A stretch of 42,013 nt of DNA from an uncultured archaeon (GTDB lineage Archaea; Asgardarchaeota; Lokiarchaeia; Sigyniarchaeales; SOKP01). Below are positions 15,428 to 41,647 of the stretch, one piece after another. The stretch spans positions 1-42,013 of the forward strand of contig CAZWEM010000043.1 in assembly GCA_964632315.1 (NCBI GenBank). The letters run 5' to 3'. The notes below the pieces were generated by a model that saw only the letters and a program-made list of their open reading frames with translations, was not told the origin of the DNA and did not search any database. Position 1 is the first letter of the stretch. Each line of letters begins with the position of its first letter. Both the position numbers and the translations under genes were made by a program.

Positions 15428-15973
15428 TTAATATTCTATCCCAAATCGAGCTTTTATACCTTTAGAAGCATAATAATGCTTTATTAATGTCATTTCAGTG
15501 AGCAAATCCGCTTCTTGTTTAATTTTTGGATGCATTTTTGGCCCTCCAGTTAAGATTAATTCCACTTTTGGTGGCTTTTTTTTAATCAATCCTAAAACGT
15601 CATTGACATCTACCACTCCATATTCTACTGCTACTCCTATTTCATCCAAAATAACAATATCATATTCATCACTCAAGATAATCTCTTCAGCAAACTTTAA
15701 TGCTTTTCTACCCTCTTCTAAATCGATTTCTTCTGGACTAGCTATCAATTTATCGGTTCCAAACTGTTTAAGTTCAAAATTTGGAGTGTTTTTTATTGCT
15801 TTTACCTCTCCATAAGCAGTATCTCCTTTCATGAATTGAATCATGTAAACTTTGAACCCGTGTCCTGTTGCCCGAAATCCTTGACCAAGTGCAGCAGTGG
15901 TTTTTCCCTTACCCCTACCAAAATATACTTGAACCATTCCTTGCGATAATCTCTTACGAGTCATTCCATTCAC
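15428..15973 (-). CDS. Cob(I)yrinic acid a,c-diamide / cob(I)alamin adenosyltransferase, CobA/BtuR/CobO type
   Basis: YFGRGKGKTTAALG, IQFMKG, ILDEI, ELILTG, ADLLTEM, GIEY. Confidence 0.93.
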   Translation of the reverse strand: MNGMTRKRLSQGMVQVYFGRGKGKTTAALGQGFRATGHGFKVYMIQFMKGDTAYGEVKAIKNTPNFELKQFGTDKLIASPEEIDLEEGRKALKFAEEIILSDEYDIVILDEIGVAVEYGVVDVNDVLGLIKKKPPKVELILTGGPKMHPKIKQEADLLTEMTLIKHYYASKGIKARFGIEY

Positions 15974-19569: not shown

Positions 19570-20451
19570 TTGAATTCAGAGGGGATTTTTACTATAAAAT
19601 CAAAATTAATAACGTTAGAAGAAGCAATTCAAGAGCATGTGAAAGATGGAGATTTAATTGGTATTGGAGGTCTATCTTTTTGGAGGAAGCCAATGGGCTT
19701 ATGTCGCGAACTCATTCGTCAATCTAAAAGGCAATTAACATTATGCACTTTTGTTGGTGGAATTGAAGTGGATATGCTGATTGGAGCAGGATTAATCTCT
19801 GAAATAAAGGCTTGTTTCGTTGGAATGGAGATTTTCGGAATGGCGCCAAATTATCGAAAGGCAGTCGAATCTGGATCTATTAAGGTATCTGAAGAATCAG
19901 AGGCAACAATTGCTTTAGGATTAAGAGCATCGTATCTTAAAGTCCCTTTTATGCCATTAAAAGGAATTATTGGTACTGATTTTCTCAAAGTGAGAGATGA
20001 TATTAAAGAAATAGAAGATCCCCTTGGTTCAGGAACACGAGTTGTTGCTGTACCTAAAATTGATTTGGATGTTGCTTTATTACACGTACCATATGCAGAC
20101 GAATATGGAAATTGCAATATTGCGGGTGCTGTTTGGATGGATGATGACATAGCAAAAACTGCAAAGAAAACTATAGTTACTGCAGAAAGGATCGTGGAAA
20201 CTGAAGATATTAGATATTTACCAGGTAAAGCTCAATTGCCCCAGCAAACCACTAAAGCAGTGGTGAAACTACCGTTTGGAGCACATCCTACATCTTGTTA
20301 TGATAAATATACGTTTGATGCTACTCACATTCAATCCTATCTAAATATGGATTTCGAAAAGTACAAGCAAAATTACATCGACTTAGCTTCTCATTCGGAA
20401 TACTTAGATCGTGCGGGAGGAGCAAAAATGATCTTAGATATCCTATTATGA
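19570..20451 (+). CDS. Family I CoA-transferase-like alpha subunit (GctA/IpdA-like)
   Basis: GIGG...RKPM, DMLIGAG, LRASYLKVPFMP, DVALLH...DEYGN, PFGAHPTSC. Confidence 0.9.
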   Translation: MNSEGIFTIKSKLITLEEAIQEHVKDGDLIGIGGLSFWRKPMGLCRELIRQSKRQLTLCTFVGGIEVDMLIGAGLISEIKACFVGMEIFGMAPNYRKAVESGSIKVSEESEATIALGLRASYLKVPFMPLKGIIGTDFLKVRDDIKEIEDPLGSGTRVVAVPKIDLDVALLHVPYADEYGNCNIAGAVWMDDDIAKTAKKTIVTAERIVETEDIRYLPGKAQLPQQTTKAVVKLPFGAHPTSCYDKYTFDATHIQSYLNMDFEKYKQNYIDLASHSEYLDRAGGAKMILDILL

Positions 20452-23088: not shown

Positions 23089-23862
23089 ATGCAAAATAAT
23101 GAAACTATTGAACTAATAAATAAGCGACGAACTATCCGTGCTTATAATTCTAAACCACTTACTAATCAAGAAGAGAATATTATTATACAGGCCGCAATGA
23201 GAGCTCCGACCGCTGGAAATCTGATGCTTTACTCTGTTTTAAAAATTAGTGACCAAAAGTTGAAAGATAAGTTAGCTATTACCTGTGATAATCAACCTCA
23301 CATAGCAAAAGCCCCCTTAGTTTTAATATTCTTAGCTGATGTACAAAGGTGGTGGGATTATTTTAAAATCTGTGATGTACAACAGAAATGTGATAAAATG
23401 AAAGTCAATTTTGAACTCCCACAAGAATCTGATTTACTTTTAGCATGTTGTGATGCCTTAATTGCTGCACAAAATGCAGTTGTTGCAGCTGAAGCTTTAG
23501 GAATTGGCTCATGTTATATTGGAGATATAATGGAGAATTATGAAACTCATAAGGAAATCCTTAATTTACCCAATTGGGTTTTCCCGATAACCTTAATTTG
23601 TTTTGGGCATCCAAAAGGAGATAAAGAAAAAATACCACTTAAGTCTCGTTTTCCTCAAAACTATATTGTTCATGATAACGTATATCATAGGTTAAACGGA
23701 GAGGATTATAAAAAGATGTTTAAAGGAGTTGAAAGAATGAGGATTATTGAATATGCGGAAAACCTCGGACAGCAAATTTATTTTGAAAAACTTGGAGCTG
23801 ATTTTTCTAAAGAAATGCGACGTTCAGTGAAAGCTGCATTACAAGAATGGATTAGTAAATAA
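23089..23862 (+). CDS. Nitroreductase / NADPH-flavin oxidoreductase (NfsA/FRP-like)
   Basis: RRTIRAY, RAPTAGNL, DALIAAQN...AEALGIGSCYIG, FGHP, KSRFP. Confidence 0.92.
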   Translation: MQNNETIELINKRRTIRAYNSKPLTNQEENIIIQAAMRAPTAGNLMLYSVLKISDQKLKDKLAITCDNQPHIAKAPLVLIFLADVQRWWDYFKICDVQQKCDKMKVNFELPQESDLLLACCDALIAAQNAVVAAEALGIGSCYIGDIMENYETHKEILNLPNWVFPITLICFGHPKGDKEKIPLKSRFPQNYIVHDNVYHRLNGEDYKKMFKGVERMRIIEYAENLGQQIYFEKLGADFSKEMRRSVKAALQEWISK

Positions 23863-23895: not shown

Positions 23896-24777
23896 ATGAC
23901 AGAATTTGCAAAAAGTTATACCACGGATGAACTGATGACAGTTTTAATGTCAAGAGAAGTCCGTAATGATGATGTAATGATTGTAGGGGTTGCAACACCC
24001 ATGGTATGGGCCGCTTTCACCTTAGCAAAATTAACACACGCACCAGATGCTATATATCATTATATCATGGGAAACACGTTCGTAAGAGAAGCTCGTCAAG
24101 TTTCCCTCTTATACCTTGAAATGAATACTACCAGAGCTTATAGATTTCAGAACAGCTGCGAATGTACTTTGGAATCATTGCCATCTGAAAAATTGACAAC
24201 AATTGAGTTTTTCCGACCTGCTCAAGTAGACCAATATGGAAACACGAACAATATATGTATAGGAGACTGGAATAAACCGAAAATTCGATTACCAGGATGT
24301 GCTGGAATAGCGGATTTTAGCATGTTTTATTCACGTGGCTCATTTCTATATACACCTCGACATGATACCAGAACATTCGTTCCATCTGAACAACTTTATT
24401 TTATATCAGGTGTAGGATTTCCAGAGGGAAAATATAGTATTTGTGGAGGTGCTGGTCCTCAATGCGTCATTACGAATTTAGCATACCTTGATTTTGATGA
24501 AGAAACAAAGAAAATGAGATTGAAATCAATCCATCCTGATTTTGAGCTTGAACATATCAAAAAGTCTACTGGTTTTGATATGATAATACCTGAAGATGTG
24601 GATTGTACTAAACCTCCAACTGTGGATGAATTAAGGTTATTAAGGGAGAAAGTAGATCCTTTGGGAATCAGAAAACTTGAAGTCCTCGCGGGTAAAGAGA
24701 GAGAAGAACTCTTAGATCATATAATTCAAAAAGAAAAGCAATTTGTCAATCGATTTCCTAAAATCATTCAATATTAA
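23896..24777 (+). CDS. Family I CoA-transferase-like beta subunit (GctB/IpdB-like)
   Basis: VGVATP, AKLTHAP, AQVDQYGNTN, RLPGCAG, GPQCVITNL, IHP, TGF, PPT..EL..LR..VDP. Confidence 0.9.
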   Translation: MTEFAKSYTTDELMTVLMSREVRNDDVMIVGVATPMVWAAFTLAKLTHAPDAIYHYIMGNTFVREARQVSLLYLEMNTTRAYRFQNSCECTLESLPSEKLTTIEFFRPAQVDQYGNTNNICIGDWNKPKIRLPGCAGIADFSMFYSRGSFLYTPRHDTRTFVPSEQLYFISGVGFPEGKYSICGGAGPQCVITNLAYLDFDEETKKMRLKSIHPDFELEHIKKSTGFDMIIPEDVDCTKPPTVDELRLLREKVDPLGIRKLEVLAGKEREELLDHIIQKEKQFVNRFPKIIQY

Positions 24778-28214: not shown

Positions 28215-29183
28215 TTACTCGTTCTTCAACTCAAACTTGATATTCTCGAATTTATCATGAATTGATTTGTAAATCTTAAATTTTCCATCATTCAATGCTT
28301 TTTTAACAAAGTCTTCGATTTCCCCTTCTTTCACCAATTCTTCGAATACAATTTTTTCCATTTTATACAATAACAGCTGTAGTATCTTATATTCAAACCG
28401 ATTTTGTCTTTTTTCAATAAGCAATTCTGAAAGCTCTAAATGCTCTTTATGATCATTAATCTGTTCGATAAGCTTATCAACACCTTCTCCTGAAAGAGCA
28501 TCAGTCATTGATACAGGAGGCCTCCAGCCCGTTTCAAAAGTGGTATCATCCAACATCATCTCAACTTGAACCGCCACATCTTCCCCACCAAGATCTTTTT
28601 TGTTGACATCATAGATATCACCAATTTCAATAATACCGGCTTTTTGCATTTGAATCGCATCGCCATAACCTGGTACTAGCACCACTACAACTGTATAAGC
28701 TAGATTATAAATATCAAATTCGGCTTGTCCAACTCCAACAGTTTCAATAATAATAAAATCCATCCCAAATGCTTCGTATAACAAGCTAATGTCAAAAACT
28801 GCTCTTGATATACCACCCTTAAAACCACGAGAAGCAAGACTTCGCATAAATACATTCGGATGTAAGGAGATATTCGTCATTCGAACTCTATCTCCAAGGA
28901 AAGCACCTCCACTGAATGGACTGGTTGGATCAACACATATAATCCCAATGGACTTTCCAGTATCCAATAATTTTTGCACTATAGCACCAGTAAGCGTGCT
29001 TTTTCCCACGCCAGGTGAACCAGTTATTCCAACGATGTAGGCATCATTTTTAATATCTTCAAAATGAGAAAATATTTCAGACGCAGTTTCGGGTTCATTC
29101 TCTAAAATTGTTATCAATTTCGCTAACGCAATTTTGTCTTTTTTCTTGAATCGTTCAATTAAAGCTTCTAATTCATCTTTCAA
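28215..29183 (-). CDS. meaB: MeaB/ArgK GTPase chaperone of B12-dependent acyl-CoA mutases
   Basis: GITGSPGVGKST, VDPTSPFSGGAFLGDRVRM, ETVGVGQAE, GDAIQ..KAGIIE, NKKD. Confidence 0.95.
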   Translation of the reverse strand: MKDELEALIERFKKKDKIALAKLITILENEPETASEIFSHFEDIKNDAYIVGITGSPGVGKSTLTGAIVQKLLDTGKSIGIICVDPTSPFSGGAFLGDRVRMTNISLHPNVFMRSLASRGFKGGISRAVFDISLLYEAFGMDFIIIETVGVGQAEFDIYNLAYTVVVVLVPGYGDAIQMQKAGIIEIGDIYDVNKKDLGGEDVAVQVEMMLDDTTFETGWRPPVSMTDALSGEGVDKLIEQINDHKEHLELSELLIEKRQNRFEYKILQLLLYKMEKIVFEELVKEGEIEDFVKKALNDGKFKIYKSIHDKFENIKFELKNE

Positions 29184-32344: not shown

Positions 32345-34702
32345 ATGAGTGAAGCTGAAGGTTTAACAACTGAAGAAGTGAAACAAAAATTAGAAACTTA
32401 TGGTTACAACTCTATTCCTGAATTAAAACCTAATCAAGTGTTACAATTTTTTAAAAAATTTTGGGGTCTTACCCCTATAATGTTAGAGGGTACTATTATT
32501 CTTGAGTGGTTAATTGGAAAACAAATTGAATCTTTAATTATATTGGCTCTTTTATTTTTTAATGCACTTGTAGGATATTTACAAGAGAGAAAAACTAATT
32601 CTTCTTTAGAGCTTCTTAAACAACAATTACCCGTGAATGTGAGAGTTTTACGAGATCATGAATGGATTGTCATAGAAGCAAAAAATTTGGTTCCAAACGA
32701 CGTCATTCGTTTGAGATTGGGAGATTTTGTTGTGGCAGATGCCCAGATTATGAAGGGCAACTTAAGTGTTGATCAATCTTCTTTGACTGGAGAATCTCAA
32801 TTGATAGATAAATCTACGGAAGACATTATATATTCCGGATCTATGGTCAAAAGAGGCGAAGCAACTGCAATTGTTGTAAAGACGGGTATTAATACAAAAT
32901 TTGGACAAACTGCTGAGTTAATTCAAACTGCTAAACCAAAACTACATATTGAAGCTTTTATTTCCAAAGTGGTCAAAATATTACTTTTAATAGTTATTTT
33001 TTCTTTATTAATTGTCATTGTAGTTTCTTTAATTGATAGTGCAGATATTTTCCAAATCTTACCTCTCTTAGTTTTGCTACTCGTCTCAGCTATTCCAGTA
33101 GCATTGCCCACTATGTTTACAATCAGCATGGCGTTAGGTTCTCTAAAACTGTCTAAAATAGGTTTACTCATAACTCGATTAGATGCAATCGATGATGCAT
33201 CAACAATGAACATTCTTTGTGTTGATAAAACCGGAACCATTACGCTTAATAGACAACGGATCACTGATGCCATTCCCACAGAAGATTATAGTAAGAATGA
33301 TGTGATTACATTTGGAGCGTTGGCGTCTGAAGCAGCAGATCAAGATCCAATTGATATGGCATTTATTTCAAAATTTAAAGAGTTTGAAGTATCACCCCAG
33401 AATTACAATCGAATTGAGTTTGTACCTTTTGACCCTAAATCTCGAAGGACAGAAGCTCTCGTGACAATTAAAAATGAGAATTTGTACATTATGAAAGGAG
33501 CTTTAAATGAAATATTCAAAATCGTAAATGAGTCAGAAGAAAAAATTATATCCTTGCAACAAAAAATTACGAGTGAAGTACCTAAAGATCGTAAACTTAT
33601 CGCTGTAGCAGCTGGAGAAACAAAAGAAAATTTGAAATTAGTTGGAATTGCTATAATATTTGATGAAATTCGGTCTGATACTCCACATTTCATATCCGAA
33701 CTTGGAGAATTGGGGATATCTTTAAAAATGTTAACAGGAGACGCTTTATCCATCGCAAAAGATGTTGCAGAGAGCATAAAATTGGGTACAAATATAAAAA
33801 AAGTGTCTGATCTTAAATCTACCATAATAAAAAAAGGATCACGGGATCTATTAGAGAGTGTTAATGGATTTGCAGAGATTTATCCCGAAGATAAATATTT
33901 AATTGTGAAACGTTTTCAAGAATTAGGTCATGTTGTCGGAATGACGGGAGATGGAGTGAATGACGCTCCTGCGTTAAAGCAAGCGGAGGTGGGGATTGCT
34001 GTGAGTAATGCGAATGATGTTGCTAAAAATGCAGCGAGCGCAGTTTTGACAGTTGATGGTCTCGAGGGTATTGTAGAATTGATTAAGCAAGGTAGAAAGA
34101 TCTTTCAAAGAGTTTTAATCTGGATTACAAATAAAATTATAAAAACTTTTTACACTGTCTTATTCATCATCTTAGCCAATTTAATACTTCGAATTAATAT
34201 TATTTCTTCCCTTCACATCATTCTTTTCTTATTCTTAACGGATTATGTGACAATCTCAATTTCCACAGACAATGTTCAAGTACCATATCAACCAGAAACA
34301 GTTAAGATGAAACGAGAAATAATATTAGGATGCATTTTAGGAAGTCTTATTATCTTAGAAGGTTTTGGTCTATTACTCTTCGGAGATTTGTTATTTAATA
34401 TTTCAGAAAACATCCAAAATCTACAAACATTTGTTTTTACATTTCTAATATTTATAGGTTACTTCTCTCTATTAAGTATTAGAGAAAATAGACATTTTTG
34501 GTCATCCAAACCAAGCAATTTTTTGTTGATTGCGATGTTAATTAATATTCTTATAGTATTCATCATTTGCCTTTTAGGTTTTGCTGGATTTTCTGCGCTC
34601 TCGTTAAGTGAAATCGGTTTTGTATTTTTTTACAGCATTTTTATTGCTTTTCTTATCAATGATTTCATAAAATTTTACATTAAAAAATACTTTTGCTCAT
34701 AA
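32345..34702 (+). CDS. P-type ATPase type IIIA (plasma-membrane H+-exporting ATPase)
   Basis: DQSSLTGES, AIPVALP, DKTGT, QDPID, MKGA, MLTGD, GDGVNDAPALK, TM6 Asp in LTDYVTI. Confidence 0.9.
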   Translation: MSEAEGLTTEEVKQKLETYGYNSIPELKPNQVLQFFKKFWGLTPIMLEGTIILEWLIGKQIESLIILALLFFNALVGYLQERKTNSSLELLKQQLPVNVRVLRDHEWIVIEAKNLVPNDVIRLRLGDFVVADAQIMKGNLSVDQSSLTGESQLIDKSTEDIIYSGSMVKRGEATAIVVKTGINTKFGQTAELIQTAKPKLHIEAFISKVVKILLLIVIFSLLIVIVVSLIDSADIFQILPLLVLLLVSAIPVALPTMFTISMALGSLKLSKIGLLITRLDAIDDASTMNILCVDKTGTITLNRQRITDAIPTEDYSKNDVITFGALASEAADQDPIDMAFISKFKEFEVSPQNYNRIEFVPFDPKSRRTEALVTIKNENLYIMKGALNEIFKIVNESEEKIISLQQKITSEVPKDRKLIAVAAGETKENLKLVGIAIIFDEIRSDTPHFISELGELGISLKMLTGDALSIAKDVAESIKLGTNIKKVSDLKSTIIKKGSRDLLESVNGFAEIYPEDKYLIVKRFQELGHVVGMTGDGVNDAPALKQAEVGIAVSNANDVAKNAASAVLTVDGLEGIVELIKQGRKIFQRVLIWITNKIIKTFYTVLFIILANLILRINIISSLHIILFLFLTDYVTISISTDNVQVPYQPETVKMKREIILGCILGSLIILEGFGLLLFGDLLFNISENIQNLQTFVFTFLIFIGYFSLLSIRENRHFWSSKPSNFLLIAMLINILIVFIICLLGFAGFSALSLSEIGFVFFYSIFIAFLINDFIKFYIKKYFCS

Positions 34703-37006: not shown

Positions 37007-37579
37007 ATGAAAGCACTAATCTTAGATGGATTTCAGAATGTAGACGATTCTATCGAATCCATAAGCAAGGGGATTATAGAAACTCTTAAAGAGCATAGTT
37101 GGGAGGTTGAATCTATCTTTCTAAAAGAACGTGACATTACTCCTTGTCAAGGGTGTTTCGATTGCTGGGTTAAAAATCCAGGATCTTGTAAAACCGATGA
37201 TGATGCAAGGGAAATCCGTAAAAAATGGGTTCAAAGTGATCTAATAATCCACTACACTCCTATAACGTTTGGGGGTTATTCATCTCAGCTTAAAAAACTC
37301 ATGGACAGATTCATTCCAGTTTTACTGCCTTTTTTTCAGAAGATTGATGGAGAGATCCATCATAAATTCCGCTATGAATCAAGACCTTCAATAATTGTAA
37401 TTGGTTATTTAAATAAGCCCAATGATGCACAAGAAAAAACTTTTAGAAAGTTAGTAAAGCGAAATTCATTAAATATGGGTGCTCCCTTACATGATGTCAT
37501 CATTCATTCAGAAAATGGCGATAAATCAGATTTATTTAATCAATTTAAAACATTAATTAGTAAATTGGAGGTAAAATGA
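37007..37579 (+). CDS. Flavodoxin-fold iron-sulfur flavoprotein-like protein
   Basis: PCQGCFDCWVKNPGSC (CX2CX2CX7C), TPITFGGYSSQLKKLMDR. Confidence 0.85.
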   Translation: MKALILDGFQNVDDSIESISKGIIETLKEHSWEVESIFLKERDITPCQGCFDCWVKNPGSCKTDDDAREIRKKWVQSDLIIHYTPITFGGYSSQLKKLMDRFIPVLLPFFQKIDGEIHHKFRYESRPSIIVIGYLNKPNDAQEKTFRKLVKRNSLNMGAPLHDVIIHSENGDKSDLFNQFKTLISKLEVK

Positions 37580-38256
37580 TGTCGGAAACAAAATCAGCTC
37601 TATTATTAGTTGGAAGTCCGAAAGGTGAAATCAGTACTTCAGCATCTTTAGGGAATTACTTATTACAATTATTAGCAGAGGCAGATTTTAAAACGGCTAA
37701 AGCAATTATCCATCGCTTTGTAAATAGGAGTGAAAAAGTTGAAGAATTATTGTCAATGGTCAACAATGCGGATATAATTATCCTTTCATTTCCACTATAT
37801 GTTGATAGCTTACCAGCACCGGTTATAAAGGCAATGGAATTAATAAGAGATAATGGAAATGAGGGGCAAAGAAAAACTCAAGACTTTATTGCTATATCAA
37901 ATTGTGGATTTCCAGAATCGAGCCAAATAGAGGTTGCATTAGAGATCTGTAAAAATTTTGCGGAAGAAGTTAATTTTAATTGGAGAGGTGGATTAGCATT
38001 AGGTGGAGGAGGAGCTGTGAATGGAAGACCTATAGATGAACGAGGAGGAATGCTTAGAAACGTAATTAAGGGACTTGAGATTACTGCTGAATACTTGAGT
38101 AAAGGAGAAGATATCCCAAATAAAGCCATTGAACTTGTTTCAAAAAGTATAATTCCTTCAGGCATGTATAAAATGATGGGAAATTTAGGATGGAGAATTC
38201 AAGCTCGGAGATATGGAGTTTTAAAAAGAATGAAGGACCAACCAGATCTTAATTAA
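37576..38256 (+). CDS. Flavodoxin-fold NAD(P)H-dependent oxidoreductase
   Basis: VGSPK...STS, FPLYVDSLP, NCGFPE; ATGA stop/start overlap with the upstream gene. Confidence 0.82.
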   Translation: MMSETKSALLLVGSPKGEISTSASLGNYLLQLLAEADFKTAKAIIHRFVNRSEKVEELLSMVNNADIIILSFPLYVDSLPAPVIKAMELIRDNGNEGQRKTQDFIAISNCGFPESSQIEVALEICKNFAEEVNFNWRGGLALGGGGAVNGRPIDERGGMLRNVIKGLEITAEYLSKGEDIPNKAIELVSKSIIPSGMYKMMGNLGWRIQARRYGVLKRMKDQPDLN

Positions 38257-38307
38257 TCCAATTTTAATTAAAAATTTCTCAAAAAAATTTAAAAAAATAA
38301 AAATACG

Positions 38308-38706
38308 CTATTTTTTCACATTTTCACGGATGAAATTAACAATTTCTGAAGTCATCGAGCCAGGACCATAAACATTAGCGACACCAATTGATCTTAACTT
38401 TACGAAATCTTTAGCAGGAATTACTCCACCAACTAAGATAAGAATGTTTTCAAAGACACCTTTTTCTTTTAAAATGTCAATAAGTTGTTGAGTATATGCG
38501 AAATGAGCTCCCGAATGAATGCTTAACCCGATCACATCAACGTCCTCTTGAATGGCAGCTGCAGCTATTTGTTCAACATTTTGAAAGCCTCCAAATATTA
38601 ACTCCATTCCAGCATCTCTTAAAGCACGTGACACCACGATTCCCCCTCTCCAGTGTCCATCTATTCCTGGTTTTGACATTAAAACTCTAATCTTTTTTTC
38701 TGACAT
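38308..38706 (-). CDS. B12-binding small subunit of acyl-CoA mutase
   Basis: KPGIDGHWRG (DxHxxG), AIQEDVDVIGLS, VGGVIP, YGPG. Confidence 0.93.
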   Translation of the reverse strand: MSEKKIRVLMSKPGIDGHWRGGIVVSRALRDAGMELIFGGFQNVEQIAAAAIQEDVDVIGLSIHSGAHFAYTQQLIDILKEKGVFENILILVGGVIPAKDFVKLRSIGVANVYGPGSMTSEIVNFIRENVKK

Positions 38707-38718
38707 TCAAATTACCTC

Positions 38719-40392
38719 CTATATTGCTAATGGGGGTTCCCATATTCCGTATATTTCTCGGTAGATATCACATACTTCTTGTACAGTTGCGCCTTCCTTC
38801 GTTGCCTCCATAACAGCGGGCATCACATTTTCTTCTTTTTCACAGACTTTTCTTAGCTTATCCAACGCTGCTTGCAATTTGTTTTCATCCCTTCTTGCTT
38901 TTAACTTGTTTATGCGATCTATTTCTATCTGTATGCTTTTAGGATTCGTTCTAAACACATCCGTTACAGTGTCATAATCAACTGGATATTTATTTACTCC
39001 AAGCATTATTTCTTCTTTAGTTTCAAGCTTCATCCGTCGCTTGTGGAAAGCATCTCGCATTTCTTTATAAAGCCATCCTGAGGATAATGCTTTATCAATG
39101 CTCCCTACTTTTTCTATTTTATCCATATAGTTCCAAACCTTCTCTTCTATTTCATCGGTTAAGTATTCAACATAGTAAGAACCAGCTAATGGATCTATAG
39201 TGTTCGCAATTCTAGTCTCATCTGAAATAACTTGCTGGGTCCTTAAAGCAACTAAAGCCGCTTCTTTGCTTGGCAGGCAAATTGCCTCATCAAAACTATT
39301 GGTATGAAGGGATTGACATCCGCCAAGATTGGCTTCTAATCCTTGAATTGCAGTACGAACAATATTAATCAAGGGTAGTTGGGCCGTCAAGGAGCTTCCT
39401 GCAGTTTGTACGTGAAACCTAAATTGAAGAGATCTCGGATCTTGAGCATCGTATCGCTCTTTCATTAACTTCGCCCAGATTCTCCTTGCTGCTCTGTATT
39501 TAGCTACTTCTTCGAAGAAATCTTTGTGTGCTGCAAGATGGAAAGCTAATCGATTTACGAAGTCGTCAATCTTCCACCCACGAGCAATCAAGTTATCAAT
39601 ATGAGAAATTGCACTCGCAAATACGAAACCTAATTCTTGAACCGCATCGATCCCTCCTTCGCGGTAATTATAGCCTGTAAAATTAATTGGATGCCAATTT
39701 GGTACATTCTTTTGAGGGACTGTCCATTCAATGAAATCACAAGCTAAACGAAGTAAATGATTTGGAGGACAGTTTTTATAAGGTATGTAGCCAACGGTCA
39801 TTGTTAAAATGTCATTCTGAGTCGTACCCATTAGTGATGATATGTCATAGCCCCGCATTTTAGCCATATTAAAGTACATTGCACATACAGGTGCGCATGT
39901 AAATGGTTCAACAACTAAAGCAACACTAATTTTATCTATAGGTATATCTTCTGTAAGGGCAAAAAGAGAATCGATGCAATACAATGGAACCCCGCTTGTT
40001 CCGACTTCAGGTGCACCATCTCTATTAGTTGGATCTATTCCATTGAAAGTTAAGGCATCAACAGCAGCGCTGAAACCAGTCTCTCCATTTTCATACAGAT
40101 ATTTCCAGCGCAGGTTTGTCTCTTCAGGGGTTCCATGGCCAGAAAATAAGCGCATTGTCCATAAACGCCCGCGATACATATTGGGATAGACTCCTCTTGT
40201 ATATGGTTCCTGTCCGGGAAATCCAATTTTTTCAAAATAATCTCCTTTTACATCCAATGGGGTATACAGTTTTTTAACCTGTATTCCAGAATCTGTTTGA
40301 AATTTGACGTCTCGTTCTTTTTTGCTTTTAACCTTTTCGTCCCAATTTTCTTTTTCTTTTTTTAATTTATCTAGAAAATTTTTGTCATACAC
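38719..40392 (-). CDS. Acyl-CoA mutase large (substrate-binding) subunit, methylmalonyl-CoA mutase family, atypical specificity residues
   Basis: FPGQEPYTRG, WTMR, GTTQNDIL, FEEVAKYRAARRIW, QTAGSSLT, GGCQSLHTNSFDEA, DPLAGSYYVE. Confidence 0.93.
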   Translation of the reverse strand: MYDKNFLDKLKKEKENWDEKVKSKKERDVKFQTDSGIQVKKLYTPLDVKGDYFEKIGFPGQEPYTRGVYPNMYRGRLWTMRLFSGHGTPEETNLRWKYLYENGETGFSAAVDALTFNGIDPTNRDGAPEVGTSGVPLYCIDSLFALTEDIPIDKISVALVVEPFTCAPVCAMYFNMAKMRGYDISSLMGTTQNDILTMTVGYIPYKNCPPNHLLRLACDFIEWTVPQKNVPNWHPINFTGYNYREGGIDAVQELGFVFASAISHIDNLIARGWKIDDFVNRLAFHLAAHKDFFEEVAKYRAARRIWAKLMKERYDAQDPRSLQFRFHVQTAGSSLTAQLPLINIVRTAIQGLEANLGGCQSLHTNSFDEAICLPSKEAALVALRTQQVISDETRIANTIDPLAGSYYVEYLTDEIEEKVWNYMDKIEKVGSIDKALSSGWLYKEMRDAFHKRRMKLETKEEIMLGVNKYPVDYDTVTDVFRTNPKSIQIEIDRINKLKARRDENKLQAALDKLRKVCEKEENVMPAVMEATKEGATVQEVCDIYREIYGIWEPPLAI

Positions 40393-40459: not shown

Positions 40460-41647
40460 TTATTTATTTTTTTCAAGTGCTTTTTTCGATTTAAACTTAG
40501 AAGGTAAGTTCAATACCCAATCGAAAGATTTCTGTATTAGATAAGAAAATAAGAAGATAAAGGGAACAAATAATAAGACGACTTCAAAGTCAAGTCTTTC
40601 CCAGGTGCCCAAATTTAAAAGATCCATTAAAATTAAAGCATATAATCCTAAAAATATCCTATGAAACAAATAGACGCAATAAGTAGAATATGCGATCGGA
40701 GAAAAAACTTTACCAACGTTTCTTTGATGGAATAATATTCTTAATAAACCTAAAATAAAGTAAAAGGATGCCAACGAAAAAATAATAAATAATATTATTC
40801 TCAAGTCTACCAAGAGGATCACGGTGGTTGCTACTATAATACCTGGATCCTGATCTAGGATGAGTTCTAAATGACTTGTTCCGAATTCTAATAGAAAGTT
40901 ATCATAAACTACATTAGATAACGATAAATATACGAAAAAACTCAAAATGGCGATACCTAAAGCTAATAGCAAGGGTAATAATTTAAAAAGTCTCTTTATT
41001 CTTTCTTTGATGAGATTGTATTCAGAAGATGTATAAATATGTGCCGCCACAATTCCTAGAATGAAGAGAAGATAATAAAAGAAAAAACGATACTCCATTA
41101 GTCCAAAAAAAAGCTTTAAAGACGCGAAAAAAAAGAGAATCGCAATTGAGATGGGGAGAATTCTATAAATAGAGCCTGAAAAACTTAAAACAATGAATAT
41201 AAGATAATAAATTACAATAATCCCTATAAACCAAAGAGTTAACATGGGAGGACCATAAATGGGAGCGACAATCATCTGAATTCCGAAAACATGTGCTAAA
41301 ATATAAAAAGGATCCAAATTCGAATAACCCATAAAGAAAATAAAAAGTATAAGGGTGATCCAGTACAAAGGAAATATCCTTAGAAACCTTTTCTTTACAA
41401 ATTTCGATAACTTTTCAAAACTATTAATATTTCGATAATTCTTATTTAAATATAGCCCAAATCCTGAAATAAATGCAAATGAACCCATAGCAACATAGAT
41501 TCCGGAAGTATGAAGCAAATATCCAATATAAGGATCTAAGTCCATATAGAAACTATAAGCATAATCATTCGGAATGTGGATTAATATCACTACAATTAAA
41601 ATCGATACTATTCTAAAAATATCTAACTCAGCAAGTTTATCCTTCAT
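40460..41647 (-). CDS. Acyltransferase family 3 (OafA-like) membrane protein
   Basis: LDIFRIVSILIVVILIH, FAFISGFGL, KRFLRIFPLYW, LWFI, SYxVYLFH-like STYCVYLFH. Confidence 0.9.
   Translation of the reverse strand: MKDKLAELDIFRIVSILIVVILIHIPNDYAYSFYMDLDPYIGYLLHTSGIYVAMGSFAFISGFGLYLNKNYRNINSFEKLSKFVKKRFLRIFPLYWITLILFIFFMGYSNLDPFYILAHVFGIQMIVAPIYGPPMLTLWFIGIIVIYYLIFIVLSFSGSIYRILPISIAILFFFASLKLFFGLMEYRFFFYYLLFILGIVAAHIYTSSEYNLIKERIKRLFKLLPLLLALGIAILSFFVYLSLSNVVYDNFLLEFGTSHLELILDQDPGIIVATTVILLVDLRIILFIIFSLASFYFILGLLRILFHQRNVGKVFSPIAYSTYCVYLFHRIFLGLYALILMDLLNLGTWERLDFEVVLLFVPFIFLFSYLIQKSFDWVLNLPSKFKSKKALEKNK

Follow-up and report, generated by a model that had tools for sequence, protein, structure and literature searches.

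To our knowledge, only about half a dozen reactions of adenosylcobalamin (AdoCbl)-dependent acyl-coenzyme A (acyl-CoA) mutases have been characterized. In methylmalonyl-CoA mutase (MCM), Tyr89 and Arg207 hold the carboxylate of the substrate; at the same two positions, isobutyryl-CoA mutase (ICM) uses Phe and Gln, and 2-hydroxyisobutyryl-CoA mutase (HCM) uses Ile and Gln. The Gln, together with a His, marks the characterized isobutyryl-CoA mutases, and replacement of the corresponding His244 in MCM lowers the rate by two to three orders of magnitude, as known from H244 mutants. The chains of the family available in the Protein Data Bank (PDB) span three reactions, and in all of them except the H244A mutant 1E1C this histidine, hydrogen-bonded to the thioester carbonyl, is present.

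We analyzed a 42,013-nt stretch of DNA, hereafter the window (contig CAZWEM010000043.1, positions 1 to 42,013), which belongs to the genome of a Loki-type Asgard archaeon from salt marshes (4.45 Mb, 99.5% complete). It encodes the large and the small subunit of a mutase of this family. The gene pair, present at at least 87 Loki-type Asgard loci, lacks the histidine and both specificity residues, yet keeps the anatomy of a radical B12 enzyme and has its own chaperone. Its substrate is very probably some CoA-bound acid other than methylmalonyl-CoA. We regard it as likely that the pair constitutes an active AdoCbl-dependent acyl-CoA mutase from a branch of the family with Asn at the His244 position (the Asn-type branch), served by a dedicated MeaB and acting on an acyl-CoA with an uncharged acid moiety, perhaps a short alkyl one.

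The gene pair and its family

The large subunit gene (38719-40392, minus strand) has a GTG start and encodes a protein of 557 amino acids, the substrate-binding triosephosphate isomerase (TIM) barrel subunit. The small subunit gene (38308-38706, minus strand) encodes a B12-binding protein of 132 amino acids. Read from the sequence, a spacer of only 12 nt including GGAGGT (38707-38718, minus strand) separates the large-subunit stop from the small-subunit start, because of which both genes are probably co-transcribed; the small subunit adjoins the large one, in the same direction, in 82 of 87 orthologous loci. A T-rich tract, equally read from the sequence, lies just past the small-subunit stop (38265-38305, minus strand) and is likely the end of the transcript in the window genome. 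A scan for consensus terminators gave no match at these positions, scans for sigma-70 promoters and terminators being uninformative for an archaeon.

Both subunits belong to the AdoCbl-dependent acyl-CoA mutase family. The large subunit matches PF01642 with an E-value of 2e-163, covering positions 1-512 of 512, and reaches 545 bits with TIGR00641 (cut-off 304). The small subunit matches PF02310 and scores 133 bits with TIGR00640 (cut-off 57); the motifs for base-off/His-on B12 binding are present (DGHWRG, of the DxHxxG type, and LVGGVIP, which includes the GG), with S-I-H replacing SxL. The AlphaFold2 (AF2) model of the large subunit has a mean predicted local distance difference test (pLDDT) of 92.6 and a predicted template modeling score (pTM) of 0.92. 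When compared by means of Foldseek, this model superimposes on HcmA (4R3U) with a template modeling (TM) score of 0.95 and a root-mean-square deviation (rmsd) of 1.7 Å, and on MCM chains with TM scores of about 0.9. A preliminary description of the locus had recognized the gene pair; it had overlooked that the pair lies on the minus strand, as well as a MeaB gene at 28215-29183 and the wider Asn-type branch.

Comparison of the active site with solved mutases

Residues were mapped by HMMER alignments to the chains 1REQ, 5REQ (Y89F) and 1E1C (H244A) of P. shermanii MCM, to human MCM and to HcmA (4R3U). Because the Y89F and H244A mutant chains were included in the alignments, the Tyr89 and His244 positions are unambiguous. 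With respect to MCM three positions are replaced, Phe83 corresponding to Tyr89, Tyr202 to Arg207 and Asn242 to His244, while Tyr241 (Tyr243 in MCM), Glu245 (Glu247), Gln192 (Gln197), Gln329 (Gln330), Asn365 (Asn366) and Glu369 (Glu370) are retained. The sequence motifs from which the preliminary description argued are all found in the protein: WTMRLFSGH (78-86), AAVDALTFNG (109-118), SVALVVEP (156-163), QNDILTMTVGY (192-202) and GYNYRE (240-245). The alignments agree with that description both on the Phe, Tyr and Asn at the three replaced positions and on the retention of the Tyr243, Glu247, Gln330 and Glu370 equivalents and of the small-subunit DxHxxG. In the AF2 model the key residues occupy the C-terminal ends of the barrel strands (79-83, 106-111, 156-160, 188-192, 237-239, 326-330 and 361-363) or the positions immediately following, as expected for the active site in this family. 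Among the PDB chains of the family, no solved chain carries Asn at the His244 position.

The best match of the large subunit, both in sequence (433 bits, 38% identity) and in fold, is HcmA of the HcmAB enzyme of Aquincola tertiaricarbonis. Both enzymes have split subunits of the same lengths and share the motifs of the CoA tunnel and of the adenosine pocket. HcmA, however, has Ile90, Asp117, Gln208 and the His where the window protein has Phe83, Ala110, Tyr202 and Asn242. Isobutyryl-CoA mutase (IcmAB; fused IcmF, 4XC6 and 5CJT-5CJW) resembles the window mutase in the Phe at the Tyr89 position, in the absence of Arg207, in having a MeaB-type G-protein and in the uncharged substrate to be expected. 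It differs in that its Gln is replaced here by Tyr or Phe, its His by Asn, and the DGHDRG of its small subunit by DGHWRG; it falls into a separate clade of the tree, the match to IcmF amounts to 190 bits only, and with the IcmF model the score is 241 bits, the cut-off being 1500. MCM (P. shermanii 1REQ; human 2XIJ) shares with the window protein the fold and the cofactor-binding residues. Public sources also name the large subunit methylmalonyl-CoA mutase, a mislabeling that the preliminary description had foreseen. Its other claim, that the protein is not an MCM by its defining residues, stands: Tyr89, Arg207 and His244 are all replaced, and with the MCM equivalog NF006944 the protein scores 438 bits, the cut-off being 876.

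Three mutases in one genome

The genome carries three mutase large subunits, with Tyr/Arg/His, Phe/Gln/His and, in the window, Phe/Tyr/Asn at the three positions. The Tyr/Arg/His subunit, with the MCM signature, is encoded on contig 37 (C37:26374-28038) with no small subunit beside it. The Phe/Gln/His subunit, with the signature of isobutyryl-CoA mutase, belongs to an operon on contig 17 (C17:34378-37311), where its own small subunit and a MeaB follow. The genome has just two small subunits of the mutase type and two complete MeaB genes, and the large subunit from contig 37 presumably borrows the small subunit from contig 17. The window large subunit shares 42% identity with each of its paralogues, which share 54% with one another; for the small subunits of the window and of the contig 17 operon the value is 48%. 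Because the same genome also holds the Tyr/Arg/His and the Phe/Gln/His mutases, the window mutase is a third enzyme, not a decayed copy.

The argument that the enzyme is HCM-like because HcmA is its best match was rejected. HcmA is nearer to the canonical paralogues, which reach 554 and 581 bits with it, than to the window protein with its 433 bits. The match to HcmA is for this reason uninformative on specificity and reflects the split-subunit lineage instead.

Distribution and conservation of the mutase

Orthologues 67-95% identical to the window protein were found at 87 loci, 80 of them contigs of a species-representative genome collection, nearly all labeled Promethearchaeota; the next relatives beyond these are at most 48% identical. 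When an even sample of 151 Asgard genomes was examined, the mutase was present in only two of 27 families, f1 (23 of 25 genomes) and f19 (five of six), and His-type mutases in 107 of the 151 genomes.

In the alignment of 84 full-length orthologues, 43% of the columns are invariant. These include Leu82, Phe83, Ala110, Val111, Asp112, Thr197, Gly201 and the run Tyr241-Asn242-Tyr243-Arg244-Glu245. The residues of the adenosine pocket and of radical handling (Tyr241, Glu245, Gln329, Asn365 and Glu369) do not vary either. The sole variation in the signature is the joint change of Tyr202 to Phe and of His86 to Tyr in three f19 sequences, a swap between the two families by which one phenolic hydroxyl group may be kept in the region. 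The small subunits of 78 of the 84 orthologues contain DGHWRG. Purifying selection on the mutase is strong, with dN/dS values (ratio of nonsynonymous to synonymous substitution rates) of 0.05-0.08 in the eight pairs, out of 83, with unsaturated dS, the other 75 being saturated. When the 136 non-orthologous representatives (clusters at 50% identity) were inspected, the whole signature was absent from all of them, and one combines Phe83 and Asn242.

Four orthologous loci have a split small-subunit gene (L029:8676-9110, L050:5640-6070, L123:11690-12125 and L091:6790-7226). Three of the inserts are 32 nt long and lie between Asp16 and Gly17 of DxHxxG, the fourth, of 29 nt, follows Gly22, and each of them shifts the frame. 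The small-subunit gene of the window is intact and has no insert.

The Asn-type branch of the family

From the top matches of an exhaustive HMMER search, 148 representatives were taken to build a tree with FastTree (Shimodaira-Hasegawa-like support). In this tree a single metagenomic protein, P0122, which was not found in the 151 Asgard genomes, is sister (0.96) to the Asgard clade (support 1.0). Together they lie inside a clade of 15 tips (0.987), 13 of them with Asn at the His244 position, that is itself nested in a looser group of 40 tips (0.68) where this position is Asn or Asp. Sequences with MCM-type and isobutyryl-type signatures gather in a clade of 30 tips, all with His (0.92), from which the Asgard clade is excluded; the phylogeny proposed as a check in the preliminary description sets the window clade outside the clade of these two signatures. 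Altogether Asn occupies the His244 position in 33 of the 148 representatives and Asp in 12. With about one third of these nearest representatives carrying Asn or Asp there, many current annotations as methylmalonyl-CoA mutase are probably wrong.

Desulfobacterales, Dehalococcoidia and one Streptomyces isolate (clusters P0133, P0162 and P0154) contribute the named members of the Asn-type branch, which bear family-level names only ("methylmalonyl-CoA mutase family protein"). They share with the window protein the Asn at the His244 position, and the small subunits adjacent to them have DGH-W-xG; they differ in being at most 46% identical and in having other residues at positions 83 and 202. Some proteins of this type are encoded in tandem with a His-type mutase and with ADP-forming acyl-CoA synthetases. 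Searching the literature and the solved structures, we found neither a paper nor a structure for the Asn-type branch. A paper on Hermodarchaeota merely lists a "methylmalonyl-CoA mutase" as candidate alkylsuccinyl-CoA mutase.

Small subunits encoded beside Asn-type large subunits have DGH-W-xG in the Asgard clade and in four metagenomic lineages and DGH-I-RG in another one, with one exception, whereas in six His-type pairs the motif is DGHDRG (five) or DPHPQG (one). That is, Trp or Ile follows DGH in six of seven Asn-type lineages versus none of six His-type lineages. In our interpretation of the alignments, this covariation of the small subunit marks an old, separate two-subunit lineage and not a local change of specificity residues. 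The covariation links the Asn of the catalytic site, in one subunit, with the residue after the cobalt-binding His, in the other, and can be followed in loci L141, L142, L145, L147 and L150 and in the window, with the small-subunit motif being DGH-W-(R/T)G or DGH-I-RG.

Bacterial relatives show two or three distinct pairs of large and small mutase subunits in tandem (metagenome contigs L141:789-11213 and L145:2102-8034). In the first of these contigs, a His-type pair stands beside an Asn-type pair, preceded by three genes for ADP-forming acyl-CoA synthetase-like proteins and followed by a branched-chain-type ATP-binding cassette transporter and then an AMP-forming ligase.

MeaB and the gene neighborhood

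A paralogue of the MeaB-type G-protein chaperone is encoded 9 kb from the mutase (28215-29183, minus strand; PF03308, 256 bits). Its GTPase motifs are intact (P-loop GSPGVGKST, ETVGVGQ and NKKD), and its identity to the genome's second MeaB is 43%. Orthologues of this MeaB lie at a median distance of 490 bp from the mutase in 66 of the 87 loci, and they adjoin it in 63; the usual co-directional core consists of the large subunit, the small subunit (82 loci) and MeaB (52). The window MeaB belongs to the window mutase, its position here being a displaced one. An ATP:corrinoid adenosyltransferase of the CobA/CobO type (15428-15973, minus strand; PF02572, 189 bits) is a possible supplier of AdoCbl, the link being a weak one, with orthologues near the mutase in 10 of the 87 loci.

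Further genes accompany the core in part of the loci. A nitroreductase-fold flavoprotein with an N-terminal ferredoxin domain directly follows MeaB in 15 loci (e.g., L054:12307-13131), and a 120-amino-acid protein without any family match occurs in the same mutase-MeaB transcription unit in 15 loci; corrinoid reduction or repair is our guess for both. The match of the nitroreductase-fold protein to BluB is far below the cut-off, and NCBIfam gave no equivalog for it nor for the HGD-D-like or HpaB-like neighbors. An ICMT-like membrane methyltransferase and a helix-turn-helix regulator come after the core in 17-18 loci, and in six loci the operon continues with two HGD-D-type proteins, a GlcD-like flavoprotein and a CCG protein. 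Mostly on the opposite strand, a Bcd-type acyl-CoA dehydrogenase (31 of the 87 loci), EtfB (27) and a ferredoxin-fused EtfA (23) are found nearby; the best solved match of the dehydrogenase is C. difficile Bcd of the Bcd-Etf complex. Besides these Bcd and Etf genes, the context in family f1 includes genes for a MaoC hydratase, a thiolase with DUF35, and AbfD-like and HGD-D proteins, and an AbfD/HpaB-family protein is encoded near the mutase in seven loci. In family f19 the small subunit is followed by two short-chain dehydrogenases/reductases (SDRs); upstream, the opposite strand carries two thiolases accompanied by DUF35 proteins.

The window itself contains, across 30 kb, DUF35 and thiolase genes, MaoC, the CobO-type adenosyltransferase, an IpdAB-like pair and MeaB. 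The IpdAB-like genes (19570-20451 and 23896-24777, with a nitroreductase gene at 23089-23862 between them) encode a glutamate-less CoA-transferase-like pair and lie near the mutase in 27 and 23 loci, mostly on the opposite strand. Like the mutase, the IpdB-like gene is distributed over f1 and f19, its coupling to the mutase being imperfect within both families: two complete genomes have the pair without the mutase (G113 and G008), another has the mutase without the pair (G135), and in a complete f19 genome they are 475 kb apart. As loose hints based on synteny, the gene context suggests an acyl-CoA metabolism that involves short or branched chains.

Proteins 46-47% identical to the window mutase, encoded beside an acyl-CoA dehydrogenase and EtfBA in genomes G029 and G048, had been taken into account as a sister clade. 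When aligned they proved to be canonical Tyr/Arg/His mutases, and the independent support that they had lent to the Bcd/Etf link was for this reason withdrawn.

Proposed function and alternatives

We infer mutase activity and, because both carboxylate ligands are replaced by aromatics (Phe83, and Tyr or Phe at 202), an uncharged acid moiety of the substrate. The proposal of an active radical mutase, already made in the preliminary description, fits the full anatomy found here: PF01642 and TIGR00641 matched over the full length, a His-on small subunit, a MeaB of its own, the adenosine pocket, purifying selection and a close structural match to a solved mutase. In the predicted reaction, the MeaB-type GTPase would load and repair the AdoCbl cofactor, and binding of the substrate would set off homolysis of the Co-C bond. 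The 5'-deoxyadenosyl radical would then take a hydrogen atom from the substrate, the CoA-thioester group would move to the adjacent carbon, and the hydrogen would be given back. Asn242 and Gln192 would hydrogen-bond the migrating thioester carbonyl, replacing the general-acid His244.

For the substrate, our best guess is a short alkyl acyl-CoA of C4-C5, straight-chain or branched, coming from the fermentation of amino acids or fatty acids. As a guess also, short alkyl substrates of this size, isobutyryl-CoA and butyryl-CoA included, rank before hydroxyacyl-CoA, and this before larger branched or cyclic substrates. The bulky substrate put forward in the preliminary description is not borne out, since the replacements at both carboxylate positions are large aromatics that bring no obvious enlargement of the pocket. 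Identification of the substrate would close a gap in our picture of how the archaea nearest to eukaryotes handle carbon, and would test to what extent the 1,2-shift depends on the histidine; a new rearrangement might serve pathway engineering.

Several points weigh against an active mutase for short alkyl acyl-CoA. As replacement of His244 is so costly in MCM, the Asn could mean a slow enzyme or a different chemistry. The phenolic hydroxyl group conserved across the two families could point to a polar group on the substrate after all. The gene is dispensable, as two 99-100% complete genomes of the same family as the window genome do not have it. Beyond MeaB, no metabolic partner is consistently co-transcribed with the mutase in the 87 loci, and the dehydrogenase/Etf and IpdAB-like genes could represent synteny inherited within one family. 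As to expression, one study provided two small metatranscriptome runs, each with a single contig of 163 nt that is identical to 38487-38648, within the small-subunit gene; this hints only weakly at transcription, one short contig from an RNA library being no proof of it.

A bolder proposal, which we consider possible but hold with limited confidence, is that the Asgard enzyme is the first recognizable member of an Asn-type lineage that catalyzes an undescribed carbon-skeleton rearrangement, for instance of a hydroxy- or otherwise functionalized short acyl-CoA. Such a lineage would stabilize the transition state of the migrating group without a protonating histidine, and would be marked by DGH-W in the small subunit and, in the large one, by Asn instead of the general-acid His.

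It is rather unlikely that the window mutase is a hydroxyacyl-CoA mutase, in which the hydroxyl group would be bound by Tyr202 (or, in f19, Tyr86) together with Asn242. In favor of it, HcmA gives the best match among solved structures, one phenolic hydroxyl group persists across the Tyr202/His86 to Phe202/Tyr86 swap, and AbfD/HpaB-family, HGD-D and GlcD-like genes adjoin the mutase in some loci. Furthermore, the f19 operon goes on with two 3-oxoacyl reductase-type SDRs and has thiolases upstream of it, an arrangement that resembles the cluster of a mutase and an SDR 3-hydroxybutyryl-CoA dehydrogenase described in acetone-degrading sulfate reducers (PMC7888143). Against this, the canonical paralogues match HcmA better, the Ile, Asp and Gln that define HCM are all replaced here, and the link to SDRs is seen in one genus only.

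Somewhat less likely still is a second isobutyryl-CoA/butyryl-CoA mutase, that is, a known reaction accomplished via other residues. The Phe at the Tyr89 position, the hydrophobic residue at the Arg207 position and the butyryl-CoA-type Bcd/EtfAB near about one third of the loci are consistent with it. The genome, however, already has a Phe/Gln/His paralogue with its own small subunit and MeaB, both the Gln and the His of the characterized enzymes are replaced, and the tree sets the window clade apart from the isobutyryl-type signatures.

We consider improbable a larger branched, cyclic or aryl-substituted substrate, the rearrangement of which would be a step in a beta-oxidation-like route with the IpdAB-like pair, MaoC and DUF35-thiolases. 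The occurrence of DUF35 with SCP2-type thiolases, MaoC, an old-yellow-enzyme reductase and the IpdAB-like pair in the window and near orthologues, and the confinement of the IpdB-like gene to the two Asgard families that have the mutase, speak for it. The pair, however, is not co-transcribed with the mutase, each is found without the other or far from it in the genomes mentioned above, and the residues replacing those of the pocket are larger, not smaller.

Finally, an MCM as annotated, or a dead relative resembling the MutA beta chain that binds only CoA esters or B12, is highly improbable: the annotations and the loss of the catalytic His244 would suit it, but the genome has a canonical MCM-type gene elsewhere, the defining residues are replaced and the score lies under the MCM equivalog cut-off, and inactive MutA-type chains, which align only over residues 231-471 with about 100 bits, have lost the adenosine-pocket and CoA motifs that the window protein keeps along with a His-on small subunit, a MeaB and strong purifying selection.

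Occurrence in metagenomes and other genes of the window

The window stretch was found in 18 DNA runs from 15 studies, corresponding to salt-marsh, marsh and rhizosphere metagenomes. Immediately next to the gene pair, two flavodoxin-like flavin mononucleotide (FMN) reductases (37007-38256, plus strand) are convergent with the mutase, and a membrane protein of the Acyl_transf_3 family (40460-41647, minus strand) is encoded 67 nt upstream of it on the same strand; neither the FMN reductases nor the Acyl_transf_3 gene are kept beside orthologues of the mutase. The window also encodes, at 32345-34702, a type IIIA plasma-membrane proton-efflux P-type ATPase (TIGR01647, 654 bits, above the equivalog cut-off).

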